64,000 nt of DNA from Escherichia coli (lineage in GTDB: Bacteria; Pseudomonadota; Gammaproteobacteria; Enterobacterales; Enterobacteriaceae). The position numbers and the translations under genes are program-made. This document shows, piece by piece, positions 56,823 through 62,568 of this stretch. The stretch is from the NCBI RefSeq assembly GCF_001677475.2, contig NZ_CP015229.1, one strand, 5' to 3'. The notes beneath the pieces were generated by a model. It did no database searches, was not told where the DNA came from, and worked only from the letters and a program-made list of their open reading frames with translations. The stretch's first letter is position 1, and each line of letters opens with the position of its first letter.

Positions 56823-57023
56823 AGACACTCTGATGTTCAGAGGGTTTATCGCGTATACGGATCGTGGATGGCAGAAAACTTTCAGAATCAGGTTTCCATT
56901 TTAAACCAGAAATTGAGTGAGTTTGCCCCATCCATGCCCCACGCGGTGAGATCGGATGTAATTAACAACAGGTTACAAAACCTACACCTGCATGCTCATC
57001 ACATGAGCATACATTTTTCATAA
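56823..57023 (+). pseudogene. Remnant of the 3' end of a tyrosine-integrase gene
   Basis: Translation HSDVQRVYRVYGSWMAENFQNQVSILNQKLSEFAPSMPHAV is paralogous to the C-terminus of the intact integrase at 60932..62233; in-frame stop immediately upstream. Confidence 0.75.
56904..56944 (+). repeat. 41-bp direct repeat (copy 1), candidate att core
   Basis: AACCAGAAATTGAGTGAGTTTGCCCCATCCATGCCCCACGC, identical to 62165..62205, inside diverged homologous flanks. Confidence 0.7.
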
Positions 57024-57050
57024 TCGACAAAGTGAATCGCCACGGATAAT

Positions 57051-57863
57051 CTAGACACTTCCGAGCCGTTGATAATACTGGTTTTCATATTCTGTCGGTG
57101 ACATCTGATCGCTGGAACCATGCCGACGCTTACTGTTATAAAACATTTCGATGTAATCAAAAATATCGCTGCGGGCTTCTTCCCGCGTTCCGTAGATCTT
57201 TTTCTTTATCCGTTCGCGTTTCAACAACTGGAAAAAGCTTTCTGCAACCGCATTATCATGGCAGTTACCGCGACGGCTCATGCTGCCCTCCAGGCCGTGT
57301 GATTTCAGGAACGACTGCCACTCATGGCTTGTGTACTGACTGCCCTGATCCGAATGAACCAGCACCTGTTTTTGGGGATTACGGCGCCATACAGCCATCA
57401 GCAGTGCGTTCAGGACAATGTCCTTTGTCATCCGGGATTGCATGGACCAGCCGATAATTTTGCGTGAGAACAGATCAACAACCACGGCAAGATACAGCCA
57501 GCCTTCGTGGGTCCTGATGTAGGTTATGTCCGTTACCCAACGCTTATCCGGAGCATCCGGATTGAACTGTCGCTGGAGCCTGTTGGGCGACACGATACTG
57601 GCCTCGCCTTTACGTGCCCGCGGGCTCCGGTATCCGACCTGAGCCTTTATCCCGACACGTTTCATCAGTCGCCAGACTCTGTTCACTCCGCACTGTTGCC
57701 CGCTGTCCCGCAGATCCAGATGGATTTTGCGATAACCATAGACGCATCCCGATTCCAGCCAGAACTGTTTAATCTGCCCTGTCAGCCTCAGGTCTGCCTG
57801 ATGGCGTTGTGAATGCGGCTGCTGAAGCCAGGCGTAAAAACCACTGGGATGAACATCCAGCAC
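57051..57863 (-). CDS. IS3-family transposase OrfB (DDE integrase domain), made as an OrfAB fusion by -1 frameshift
   Basis: 270-aa ORF containing the conserved SDQGSQYTS motif. Confidence 0.85.
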   Translation of the reverse strand: MLDVHPSGFYAWLQQPHSQRHQADLRLTGQIKQFWLESGCVYGYRKIHLDLRDSGQQCGVNRVWRLMKRVGIKAQVGYRSPRARKGEASIVSPNRLQRQFNPDAPDKRWVTDITYIRTHEGWLYLAVVVDLFSRKIIGWSMQSRMTKDIVLNALLMAVWRRNPQKQVLVHSDQGSQYTSHEWQSFLKSHGLEGSMSRRGNCHDNAVAESFFQLLKRERIKKKIYGTREEARSDIFDYIEMFYNSKRRHGSSDQMSPTEYENQYYQRLGSV

Positions 57864-57919
57864 CCGACAGAGCAGGCGAACAGGCCAGCAACAGGTGTTG
57901 TCACGGATAAAGGCGTACC

Positions 57920-58204
57920 TCAGTCGGACAGCTTTGCGAAGTACGCCGCGGCTTTTTTTAATATGTCCCGTTCGTCGGTAACCCGCTTCAGCTCTTTCTG
58001 GAGACGGCGGATCTCGGCCTGAGCATCTGACTGTTCTTTATTAGCGGAAGAATCCGGACCGTACTTCTTTATCCAGGCGTAAAGGCTGTGGGTGGTGATA
58101 TCGAGACGTGTTGCAACGCTGGCAACAGAATAACCGCGATCAACAACCTGTTTGACTGCTTCAATTTTAAACTCTTCGGGATAACGCTTACCGCTCATGG
58201 GCAC
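57920..58204 (-). CDS. IS3-family transposase OrfA (HTH DNA-binding)
   Basis: 94-aa ORF ending KKAAAYFAKLSD, with the A-AAA-AAG heptamer in the KKA codons. Confidence 0.85.
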   Translation of the reverse strand: MPMSGKRYPEEFKIEAVKQVVDRGYSVASVATRLDITTHSLYAWIKKYGPDSSANKEQSDAQAEIRRLQKELKRVTDERDILKKAAAYFAKLSD

Positions 58205-58427
58205 CTCTCTTTAAGCCATCTTAAATGACTCTGAGGTGTCTGTTAAACCCGTGGCGATTCAAAGATCGTCCAAGAGCGCACCAAATAACAGATGGTTATA
58301 GTCGTCGAAAACATCAGTCGCCTAAGTTCACCTTAGAACTAGTGCTGTTTTGTGTCCCACCCATGCCCCACTGCCCCTTCTTTTCCTTCCTGCCCTATAC
58401 TTTCAGTCTGACTGACTGGAGGCTTCT

Positions 58428-59018
58428 ATGTGTGGACGTTTTGCACAAGCCCAAACCCGTGAAGAATACCTGGCATACCTGGCCGATGAGGCTGATCGCG
58501 ATATCGCATACGACCCGGAGCCTATTGGCCGGTACAACGTGGCGCCCGGTACCAAAGTTCTGCTCCTGAACGAACGCGACGAGCAGCTGCACCTCGATCC
58601 GGTTCTGTGGTCGTACGCGCCCGGGTGGTGGGATAAGCAGCCGCTGATTAACGCGCGCGTCGAGACGGCGGCCACTAGCCGCATGTTCAAACCTCTCTGG
58701 CAGCATGGCCGGGCGATCTGTTTTGCAGATGGGTGGTTCGAATGGAAGAAGGAAGGCGAAAAGAAACAGCCCTACTTCATTATCAACCCGGTCACTGGTA
58801 AGCCGGTCTCGGGTAATAACAAAGGCAGTATGTTGCTCATCTGGCGACCATTCCCGCGGGCAAACTGCCACTTCGCAACAGTGGAGAGGGATGAGTTGAT
58901 GACATTCGGAGCGAAACTTCTCGCCCGGTGGGAGGCCGCATATGGATTAAAGTACACCTCTGGTAATCCATGTATAATTAGATACCAGAGGAGCTTTGAA
59001 CCAAAAAAATATTATTAA
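58428..59018 (+). pseudogene. Truncated paralog of yedK (SRAP N-terminal region fused to unrelated C-terminal sequence)
   Basis: 196-aa ORF; first ~117 aa closely match YedK, remainder unrelated; upstream ~45 bp also resembles the yedK upstream region. Confidence 0.65.
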
Positions 59019-60591: not shown

Positions 60592-60640
60592 CCATCTATA
60601 GCCGCCCACTGAGGCGGTTTCTTTTTGCCTGGAGAAAACC

Positions 60641-60886
60641 ATGAGCGACATTATCAACCTGGTACCGAATAAATGGGTGACTGAGCAGAACCTGATCGCA
60701 GTCACCGGATTAAGGCCAGGAACCATTGAACGAGCCCGCCGCGAGTCATGGTTCGCCGGCCGCGAATATATGCATGTTTCACCCGATGGAAACCCAAAGC
60801 CAAACAGTGAATGCATGTACAACACAGAAGCCATTAATCACTGGATCGAACAGCAAGCATCAAAACAGCCGGGTGCTCATTCATGA
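60641..60886 (+). CDS. Excisionase-like protein (lambda Xis-like motif)
   Basis: 81-aa ORF directly upstream of the integrase; TIERARRESWFAGREYMHV resembles lambda Xis ETVRRWVRE...GREYLFH. Confidence 0.6.
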   Translation: MSDIINLVPNKWVTEQNLIAVTGLRPGTIERARRESWFAGREYMHVSPDGNPKPNSECMYNTEAINHWIEQQASKQPGAHS

Positions 60887-60931
60887 TGAACGGGTTATGC
60901 TTATCAGGCTCTTGGACGTCAGGAGGGGATA

Positions 60932-62233
60932 ATGGCTAAATCAGCATACCCAACAGGCGTTGAGAACCACGGAGGAACTCTCCGCATATGGTTCATCTAT
61001 AAAGGCAGCCGGGTTCGTGAAAGTCTCGGCGTGCCGGATACACCAAAAAACAGAAAGATCGCTGGCGAGCTACGCGCGTCGGTGTGCTTTTCGATTAAGA
61101 CCGGTAACTTCAATTATGCGGCCCAGTTTCCGGACTCACCTAATCTGAAAAGATTTGGCGTGGAGAGTAAGGAAATAACCGTGCTGGAACTAGCGAACAA
61201 GTGGCTTGAACTGAAGCGTATGGAGATCAGCACCAACGCGATGTCACGCTATGCATCTATAGCGCGCAACATGGTGCCCAGGATTGGTGGGGACAGGCTG
61301 GTATCTGCGGTAACGCAGGAAGATCTGCTGTTTATCAGGAAGGAATTGCTGACCGGTTATCACACGCTGAAAGTCGGGCAGAAAACGCCGGTTAAGGGCC
61401 GCTCAGTCAGAACGGTCAACAACTACATGAAGACCATGGGCGGGATGTTTAAGTTTGCCGCTGATAGCGGTTATGTACGGGTGAATCCGTTCACCGGGAT
61501 CGCCATGCTTAAGCGGTCACGATGCGAGTCTGACCCGCTGACGCGCGATGAGTTTGTCAGGTTGATTAACGCCTGCGCCCACCAGCAACTGAAAAACATG
61601 TGGTCTCTTGCCGTCTACACCGGCGTGCGCCACGGAGAACTTGTGTCGCTGGCCTGGGAAGATATCGACATGAAAGCGGGTACGATGATGATCCGCCGGA
61701 ACCACACGTTAACGAAGGAATTCACCCTTCCGAAAACAGAGGCCGGGACTGACCGTATCATCAACCTCATTCAGCCAGCGATCGACGTGCTGAAGAGCCA
61801 GGCCGAATTAACACGCCTGGGTAAGCAGTATCAGGTTGAGGTGAAACTGCGCGAGTATGGCCGAACCGATGTGCATCCGTGCACGTTCGTGTTCAACCCG
61901 CAGATCGCTTCGCGTAACAGCCGTGCCGGGCATCATTACGCAGTGGGGTCGATCAACCAGTCATGGGAGGCAGCAATGCGGCGCGCCGGGATTCGCTATC
62001 GCAGAGCATACCAGTCCCGACACACGTATGCATGCTGGTCGTTGGCTGCCGGTGCCAACCCGAACTTCATCGCGAAGCAAATGGGCCACACCGACGCGCA
62101 AATGGTTTACCGGGTGTACGGATCCTGGATGGCTGAAAATAACCAGGACCAGGTACTCATCCTCAACCAGAAATTGAGTGAGTTTGCCCCATCCATGCCC
62201 CACGCCGTGGGAACGGATGGTTATTATTTATAA
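60932..62233 (+). CDS. Tyrosine-type site-specific integrase (phage/island integrase), intact
   Basis: 433-aa ORF; C-terminal catalytic region HTYACWSLAAG...MGHTDAQMVYRVYG with the tyrosine nucleophile context; ends 20 bp from the fliE stop. Confidence 0.88.
   Translation: MAKSAYPTGVENHGGTLRIWFIYKGSRVRESLGVPDTPKNRKIAGELRASVCFSIKTGNFNYAAQFPDSPNLKRFGVESKEITVLELANKWLELKRMEISTNAMSRYASIARNMVPRIGGDRLVSAVTQEDLLFIRKELLTGYHTLKVGQKTPVKGRSVRTVNNYMKTMGGMFKFAADSGYVRVNPFTGIAMLKRSRCESDPLTRDEFVRLINACAHQQLKNMWSLAVYTGVRHGELVSLAWEDIDMKAGTMMIRRNHTLTKEFTLPKTEAGTDRIINLIQPAIDVLKSQAELTRLGKQYQVEVKLREYGRTDVHPCTFVFNPQIASRNSRAGHHYAVGSINQSWEAAMRRAGIRYRRAYQSRHTYACWSLAAGANPNFIAKQMGHTDAQMVYRVYGSWMAENNQDQVLILNQKLSEFAPSMPHAVGTDGYYL
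62165..62205 (+). repeat. 41-bp direct repeat (copy 2), candidate att core inside the integrase 3' end
   Basis: Identical to 56904..56944. Confidence 0.7.
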
Positions 62234-62253
62234 ATATCATTAGGTTAGGTAAC

Positions 62254-62568
62254 CTAAACTTGCATGCCCATCACTTCCTGATACGCCGCCACCAGCTTAT
62301 TACGCACCTGAATCCCCATTTGCATAGAAACTGAGGCTTTTTGCATATCGGTCATCACATCGTTTAACGCCACGCCGGGTTCACCGAGAGTGAATTTTTC
62401 TGCCTGCGTGCGGGCGGCTGTTTGTGTATCGCTTATGCGATCGAGCGCGGCGTGCAGCTGCCCGGCAAAACTAATGGTCGGTTGCGGCAGTGATTCCTGC
62501 GCACGCGCACTCATCGCCGTAGCCTGTAACTGGCTGATAACCCCTTCAATCCCCTGTATCGCTGACAT
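62254..62568 (-). CDS. fliE: Flagellar hook-basal body protein FliE
   Basis: 114-aa ORF; start set at [10 protein letters not shown] (104 aa). Confidence 0.95.

Follow-up and report, generated by a model that had tools for sequence, protein, structure and literature searches.

The 64,000-nucleotide stretch of Escherichia coli DNA analysed here (contig NZ_CP015229.1; "the window" below) raises the question of why the junction at which the 3' end of a phage-type integrase gene faces the 3' end of fliE is found twice, on either side of a unit of about 5.3 kb. A preliminary description of the locus had proposed that elements of this family carry a phage attachment site (attP) overlapping the integrase 3' end together with a mimic of the fliE tail, that they integrate serially at the fliE 3' end, and that a 41-bp block shared by both copies is the attachment-site core, kept identical by recombination. 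Our analysis upholds the overlap, the mimic and the serial integration; the block as core did not stand. The bracketed unit (57003-62274, 5.27 kb) is very probably the decayed remnant of a temperate phage that carried an int-xis-attP module of the type found in Enterobacter phage vB_EclS_CobraSix (Cobrasixvirus) and that inserted at the 3' end of fliE.

A direct-repeat search within 55000-64000 returned as its top pair 56818-56958 / 62079-62219 (141 nt, 79%), and a gapped alignment of the two copies carried the similarity across a single 11-bp indel as far as a shared end at the hexamer CATCAC (Table 1). The duplication of the junction is thereby confirmed. Its left copy had been taken to run to 57023, which is 21 bp too far; the true end is 57002, and positions 57003-57023 are phage DNA, part of the P' arm of attP, that is absent from the right copy. 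The 41-bp block was found without a mismatch in both copies, as had been described. The left copy could likewise be read directly as an integrase remnant facing, on the opposite strand, a fliE tail that ends Val-Met-Ser-Met-Gln-Val-stop (56982-57002), versus VMGMQV-stop at the terminus of the intact fliE on the right (62254-62274, also minus strand). Shuffled sequences gave an expectation of 0 matches to the junction pattern, and the paired motif TGCCCCA, considered below, has three occurrences in the window where shuffles predict 0. The repeated junction is not due to chance.

Comparison with free phages indicated what the two copies are. CobraSix (L004 4700-4990) and a contig from IMG/VR (L061) hold an uninterrupted attP, which corresponds to window positions 62079-62274 joined directly to 57003-57032 plus 58265-58370; in other words, the free-phage attP is the left part of attR followed by the right part of attL, minus an insertion sequence (IS) and one copy of the trinucleotide AAG. 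The CobraSix DNA past int passes through the 41-bp block and the int stop codon to ...TTAGGTTAGATAACCTAAACTTGCATGCCCATCAC, continues at once with ATGAGCATACATTTTTCATAATCGACAAAGATCGTCCAAGAGCGCACC... and ends CATGCCCCATATATGCCCCA. When attP was rebuilt from the window it was 93% identical to those of CobraSix and L061 over 330 bp, and the rebuilt empty site was 98% identical to the junction between an integrase relic and fliE in strains K-12 and MB10. On paper, attL and attR recombine into the free-phage attP, with a predicted joint of ...TGCATGCCCATCAC to ATGAGCATAC..., and into the unoccupied bacterial site, with a predicted joint of ...TGCATGCTCATCAC to TTCCTG. These two matches argue that the unit is an integrated phage genome and that the two copies are its attL and attR. 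The attP so defined extends at least from -89 to +136 around the core (at least ~225 bp) and overlaps the last ~25 codons of int. Its fliE-tail mimic reads (V)MGMQV-stop in CobraSix and L061 and MMSMQV-stop in Escherichia phage IdasGreatGrand, and in the window the last four codons and stop of fliE (Gly-Met-Gln-Val-stop) are those supplied by the phage. Both the overlap with int and the mimic are thus visible in free-phage sequences, and integration specific to the fliE 3' end is borne out by these attPs together with independent lysogens that have the same junctions and by attL junctions of other genera in which no integrase relic stands on the left.

One such lysogen, E. coli 30EVA1, carries a complete lambdoid prophage of ~45 kb between identical attL (here without the IS) and attR sites; a full-length SRAP gene comes first past attL, and xis-int comes last, before fliE. 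Its junctions and those of the window were used to locate the exchange. To the right of the block, phage and resident DNA differ by the 11-bp indel, in the spacer and by A/C and T/C in the tail, with a further C/T difference seven bases before the end of CATCAC. In both the window and 30EVA1, attL is resident-type and attR phage-type at all differences right of the block. A C/G difference eight bases before the hexamer end segregates likewise in hosts without an integrase relic, and in the sister subtype represented by IdasGreatGrand a T/C difference at the sixth (last) base of the hexamer travels with the right-hand flank. The segregation of these differences confines the exchange to CATCA(C), ~65 bp right of the block. 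The junctions thus place the predicted strand exchange in or right beside CATCAC, at the codons for Val and Met, the sixth- and fifth-last residues of FliE, and not in the 41-bp block. The hexamer is centred in an imperfect palindrome, TGCATGCCCAT-CAC-ATGAGCATACA, and the core stretch spanning the candidate overlap region is CCCATCACATG. The palindrome halves co-vary between the subtypes (GCC/GCT vs GGA/GGT), as would be expected of core-type sites for the integrase (Int).

If the block is not the core, its perfect conservation calls for another explanation. The int genes of CobraSix and IdasGreatGrand are 77% identical over 1,306 columns, and the block is their longest identical run, the next longest being 26 bp; it is also unchanged in K-12, MB10 and the attL of 30EVA1. 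Strong constraint, the strongest on any stretch in this integrase family, accounts for its identity in the two copies of the window. The block codes for ...LNQKLSEFAPSMPHA... and includes TGCCCCATCCATGCCCCA, in which TGCCCCA is repeated at a distance of 11 bp. The opposite arm has a counterpart pair, TGYCCCAYNNATGCCCCA, at +119 in seven of seven aligned attPs, so defining a TGYCCCA-N4-TGCCCCA pair at about -89 and +119 from the core that is kept in both arms of all seven. Phages phiP27, CharmingMan and YP3, with integrases 68-70% identical and different cores, likewise have one pair within the last int codons and one or two ~200 bp downstream. The residues encoded at the pair vary among relatives (FAPSMPH, YVPMMSH, FAPQMPQ, FAPSLPQ).

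The integrase of the window has an N-terminal PF12167 Arm-DNA-bind_2 domain (residues 7-70, E=1.5e-24) and a PF00589 Phage_integrase domain (residues 203-396, E=6.9e-18). Alignment with Tn1549 Int identified the catalytic residues as Arg (TGVRHGEL), Arg-His (SRHT), His (MGH) and Tyr (MVYRVY), and the residue matching lambda His308 is Tyr. It is 86% identical to IdasGreatGrand Int; among solved structures, lambda Int did not match it at E<=0.001. The integrase of phage lambda is heterobivalent, with core-type and arm-type sites. The presence of the paired motif in both arms, together with the arm-binding domain, makes it most likely that the TGCCCCA pairs are arm-type sites for the Int N-domain and that this is the role of the block, one candidate pair lying inside the int reading frame. 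If so, functional arm-type sites would be embedded in the int coding sequence. For the integration host factor (IHF) consensus, a search by eye in both arms gave only one-mismatch matches. Several points weigh against these assignments. At the crossover, attP and the resident sequence agree over no more than 6 bp, with mismatches on either side, and the overlap region could be 6, 7 or 8 bp; the pre-integration sequence of the sister-subtype lysogens is itself inferred; sequence is the source for the proposed binding of the TGCCCCA pairs by Int, for the precise points of cleavage and for the loss of excision suggested below; and conservation of the block may partly reflect protein constraint alone, though synonymous positions are also invariant.

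The left copy matches the integrase relic that abuts fliE in K-12 (intG), MB10 and other strains, a segment labelled incomplete integrase in RefSeq records of other E. coli. It carries an 11-bp deletion across the old stop codon and resembles the P arm of the IdasGreatGrand type (79-80%) more closely than that of the CobraSix type (73%). By these comparisons the copies are the P arms of two different phage subtypes that used one site successively. The flanks had been read as a diverged duplicate of one junction, which was mistaken; the proposal of serial integration at the fliE 3' end gains from the same result, as the left copy derives from an earlier integrase, one of the other subtype. Comparison of loci across strains agreed with this: K-12 and MB10 lack the unit, and 30EVA1, FLI21 and isolate 30602_1#64 hold other elements. 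Tandem occupancy recurs in all three of the latter. Isolate 30602_1#64 (L008) carries a P22-like prophage and FLI21 (L007) a decayed one, each with the sister IdasGreatGrand-type module at the same site, and in 30602_1#64 the earlier occupant is an island with emrE, ybcL and ybcM.

Two other accounts of the duplication were weighed against successive site-specific integration at CATCAC. The block might be the place of exchange after all, either as att core or as a site of RecA crossover between the phage and the resident relic. It is the sole long perfect match between the copies, and homologous integration into the relic is conceivable because the copies share ~180 bp at 70-80% similarity. 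However, had Int or RecA acted in the block, phage-type sequence would run from there to CATCAC in the left copy; this segment is instead identical to resident E. coli, 11-bp deletion included, with the right copy CobraSix-type throughout. Moreover, the block is equally invariant in free phages, and other genera have the same attL junction with neither an integrase relic nor the block to the left of the fliE tail. Segregation of the differences and invariance of the block in free phages rule it out as the crossover, and we regard this account as very improbable. We give still less credence, close to none, to a local tandem duplication or rearrangement of the int/fliE junction that proceeded without an integrase and trapped foreign DNA between the copies. 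Such non-site-specific duplication does occur at the neighbouring O55:H7/O157 locus, where a yedL-espR3-int relic module is joined inside yedL; in the window, however, the two copies are of different phage subtypes and the novel joint at 57002/57003 is the exact attP joint of free phages.

The question of what kind of element was integrated was addressed through the contents of the unit, which consist of int, xis, three or four small or unknown open reading frames (ORFs) and a fusion scar and do not make up a complete prophage. No structural, lysis, replication or immunity gene was found among the unit ORFs. Once the IS is set aside, the first ~550 bp are 93% identical to the attL end of the 30EVA1 prophage (P' arm and first ~120 SRAP codons) and the ~160 bp that follow match the CobraSix methyltransferase gene at its 3' end (81%). 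After these come ~1.7 kb of unique DNA and then, over the final 1.66 kb, xis-int-P arm. The scar ORF matches NCBIfam PRK09951 over residues 1-128 and phage_N6A_met over residues 119-160. BLAST against the 30EVA1 prophage and CobraSix puts the scar junction near 58780, which implies that ~41 kb of prophage interior was lost. It could be argued that the unit is instead an autonomous integrative element of small size, or a phage satellite, with int, xis and some cargo genes as its natural complement. Intact copies of int, xis and both att cores are present, at least 15 public contigs have the same 4-kb element, and the unit retains a HEPN-like gene that is absent from the full phages compared. 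Against this, the SRAP::methyltransferase ORF is a scar joining genes that lie ~41 kb apart in the complete 30EVA1 prophage, and the unit ends are 85-93% identical to full prophages. No replication, packaging or regulatory genes were found in the unit; specifically, no unit ORF matched satellite-type replication, regulator or packaging-hijack families in NCBIfam, PHROGs or PADLOC. The identical scar in all contigs checked points to one deletion event and not to a family of small elements. An autonomous element is thus a very unlikely explanation, and decay of a full prophage is the one we carry forward.

The IS that interrupts the P' arm matches a sequence annotated elsewhere as IS3 family transposase (98.7% identity) and is flanked by a 3-bp duplication, AAG, at 57030-57032 and 58262-58264. 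IS-free copies of the scarred remnant in three public assemblies (L110, L111 and L113) have an intact CGACAAAGATCGTCC at the IS site, and the target duplication is therefore confirmed. Contig NJSK01000096.1 of GCA_002516285.1 is 100% identical to the window over 5.8 kb. The insertion struck the P'-arm block GACAAAGATCGYCCAAGAGCRCAC, whose conservation extends to phiP27. In Enterobacter cloacae DSM 26481 (L093 6656-6730), the integrase beside fliE is broken by an end of this IS type (94.7% identical). As for the cargo, neither CobraSix nor IdasGreatGrand nor the 30EVA1 prophage has an equivalent of the 272-aa ORF, which matches HEPN-like families weakly and may be a defence or abortive-infection gene kept in the remnant.

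Table 1. Features of the repeated junctions and of the unit between them, in window coordinates.
Feature	Positions	Strand	Basis or remark
Left copy, bacterial side of attL	56818..57002	+	Older integrase 3' relic (intG type), then displaced fliE tail
Left 41-bp block	56904..56944	+	TGCCCCA-N4-TGCCCCA pair at 56924-56941
Orphan fliE tail, displaced by integration	56982..57002	-	Identical to live fliE end of K-12 and MB10
Predicted crossover hexamer CATCAC in attL	56997..57002		Segregation of phage/resident differences
First 30 bp of P' arm, ATGAGCATAC...GACAAAG, with right core-palindrome half	57003..57032	+	Contiguous with CATCAC and with 58265 onward in CobraSix, L061 and IS-free relatives
IS3-family insertion sequence, 1,229 bp	57033..58261	-	orfA 57920-58204, orfB 57051-57863; 38-nt imperfect terminal inverted repeats
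Rest of P' arm and phage SRAP upstream region	58265..58427	+	Second pair (TGYCCCA) at 58353-58370
Deletion scar ORF	58428..59018	+	SRAP N-terminal ~120 codons fused to last ~50 codons of phage N6-adenine methyltransferase
272-aa ORF, cargo	59015..59833	-	Weak HEPN-like: PADLOC RTasHEPN 3.8e-8, Pfam HEPN_RiboL-PSP 0.0018
Small phage ORF	60016..60249	-	phrog_27283, function unknown
82-aa ORF	60343..60591	+	No family match
Excisionase Xis	60641..60886	+	phrog_539 1.9e-37, full length; PF06806 on identical product
Tyrosine integrase, 433 aa, intact, lambda-type	60932..62233	+	95.8% identical to CobraSix Int
Right copy, phage P arm of attR	62079..62274	+	96% identical to CobraSix P arm; int 3' end with block 62165-62205 (motif pair 62185-62202), 35-bp spacer past int stop, phage-borne fliE-tail mimic, hexamer CATCAC 62269-62274
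Intact fliE, 104 aa	62254..62568	-	Gene call on identical sequence in L110/L112

Sequence comparison gives the following course of events. A lambda-type Int with an arm-binding N-domain recombined the phage attP with the fliE 3' end at CATCAC. The gene was kept intact because attP carries a copy of its last codons, so that its terminus changed from VMSMQV to VMGMQV and the original tail was stranded at attL. The target site already bore an older integrase 3' relic of the other subtype, as in K-12 intG, for which reason both junctions read int 3' end, block, fliE tail. A deletion of ~41 kb fused the SRAP gene at the attL end to the methyltransferase gene near xis. Later, and in the window lineage only, the IS3-family element entered the P' arm 30 bp from the core, so that 1.2 kb now lies between the core and the P' motif pair. 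Excision of phage lambda needs the P' arm sites. By analogy, this separation probably prevents Int/Xis excision although int and xis are intact.

The arrangement proposed here resembles that of lambda Int, Xis and attP in several respects: an arm-binding N-domain combined with a tyrosine-recombinase domain, xis beside int, int transcribed toward attP, repeats in both arms phased at about one helical turn, and a short palindromic core around a 6-8 bp exchange. It differs in that the sequence relation is distant, one candidate arm pair lies in the int reading frame, and insertion is into the terminal part of a protein gene and not into an intergenic site. In this last respect a parallel is provided by phage 21 and e14, which integrate within the 3' end of icd, supply a replacement end and leave the original end at the far junction; e14 is itself a decayed remnant. 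Shared with them are a protein-gene 3' end as target, a gene that is kept intact and a displaced tail at the distal junction, whereas the target here is fliE, only ~5-7 codons are replaced versus ~50, and the integrase is of another lineage. The integrases of phiP27 and of Stx phages at the yecE site ('intR') belong to the same family as the window integrase (68-69% amino-acid identity), and phiP27 has the same attP layout, with a pair in the last int codons, more ~200 bp downstream and the AAAGATCGCCCAAGAGCAC block in common; phiP27 uses another core and another target (its record annotates an 11-bp att) and has no fliE mimic. The left copy of the window is the same relic as K-12 intG, except that in K-12 the relic abuts the live fliE and in the window the second element has been inserted between them.

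CobraSix has an xis-int-attP module 88% identical to that of the window at the DNA level, and IdasGreatGrand carries the sister subtype of the module (mimic MSMQV-stop). Both differ from the unit in that the integration module alone is shared, the window being without their structural, replication and lysis genes. The cargo beside attP also differs, being umuDC in CobraSix vs SRAP in the window. This gene slot beside the P' arm holds umuD/umuC-like genes in CobraSix (L004 5000-6670), an S24 peptidase gene in E. coli 63-2 (L115) and an SRAP gene in E. coli prophages (L006 4338-5009). The umuDC and SRAP genes found at the same slot are both concerned with DNA-damage tolerance.

Close relatives of the integrase were found in 177 IMG/VR contigs, and the best 80 loci that were kept are 96-99% identical. 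Those contigs that run past int enter fliE genes of several different sequences and hence of several host genera. Using 23 nt of the block to scan species-representative genomes, we found it in Enterobacter, Citrobacter, Pluralibacter, Lelliottia, Phytobacter, Silvania, Pseudenterobacter and one Escherichia species. In Pluralibacter (L096) and in seven of the eight IMG/VR contigs that include the junction, attL has native DNA beside the fliE tail and no integrase relic, and the tail at such relic-free junctions reads VMGMQV-stop or MMGMQV-stop. Among 5,426 complete E. coli genomes, the P' arm of the family is present in only 18 and the unit of the window in none. In other parts of the window, the yedK-yedL-yedN segment is 91-92% identical to K-12, the yed/fliE locus overall is 91-95% identical to E. 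coli, and over a housekeeping stretch (30000-34000) the identity to every complete E. coli genome is 95-98.9%; the source of the window seems to be an E. coli lineage for which few complete genomes exist. DNA of the E. coli type (yedK, integrase relic and fliE, 83-96% to the window) also turned up in assemblies labelled as a Lachnospiraceae metagenome-assembled genome (L099, 5.2 kb) and as Nocardioides malaquae (L109, 268 bp), probably as contamination of those assemblies.

In the literature, fliE has been tabulated as a prophage insertion locus in Cronobacter malonaticus, with no att analysis (Grim et al. 2013, PMC3680222), and the yedK, yedL, yedM, yedN and intG genes between yedF and fliE of K-12 have been described as a difference from Salmonella (PMC5122947). 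Searches on fliE as a phage attB, on intG with fliE and on CobraSix/IdasGreatGrand returned only these two entries, the Cronobacter table and the Salmonella locus description, and no att-level description in the searchable papers. Neighbouring genes of the locus vary as well. E. coli O55:H7 DEC5B (L003 6895-12190) has a yedL-espR3-int relic and a yedL'-espR4-int relic ahead of fliE, with espR3 split by an IS3-family element. The tandem yedL-espR modules of O55:H7/O157 were considered as site-specific junctions and rejected, as the relic is joined to an internal point of yedL and no fliE tail is present. In the window, 55513-56631 (minus strand) encodes an intact leucine-rich-repeat protein of 372 aa (DUF5503, EspR3/YedN-like) that weakly resembles the leucine-rich-repeat regions of SspH2 and SlrP; its K-12 counterpart is a frameshifted pseudogene.

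The recurrence of SRAP genes at this locus bears on the origin of yedK. In this prophage family SRAP is the terminal gene beside attL (471 viral contigs, in many of which it stands last on the contig), and prophage SRAP is 87% identical to chromosomal YedK. The window holds two yedK-like genes (54113-54781 and 58428-59018). The minimal E. coli locus consists of yedK plus 392 bp with the integrase relic, followed by fliE, and the remnant in the window shows the same path of decay, with the SRAP end and the int end kept. Between yedF and fliE, the position is taken by another gene in Salmonella and is empty in some other genera. It is possible, though somewhat doubtful, that the segment from yedK to intG, between yedF and fliE, is what remains of both ends of an even earlier prophage in the same family. 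An older attL was sought in the yedF-yedK spacer as a fliE tail, P' arm, core or arm motif, and none was recognisable; only ~40-50 bp upstream of the start codon resemble the upstream region of prophage SRAP. For this reason the idea of yedK as a phage gene is put forward tentatively. If it is true, YedK, a model bacterial protein of the SRAP/HMCES type, would be a domesticated phage gene, and the present E. coli 'attB' would be an old attR still bearing arm-type sites.

The process reconstructed here is standard site-specific integration followed by decay, and the value of the locus lies in annotation and illustration. The map of attP and attB, with its hexamer, palindrome, candidate arm sites and P' block, is usable for calling prophages and their boundaries. 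The intG fragment beside fliE finds an explanation as the scar of phage integration at an attachment site that is still in use. By this reading lysogeny alters a single FliE residue, Ser to Gly at position -4, and the fliE site is common to mosaic lambdoid and P22-like phages across several enterobacterial genera.

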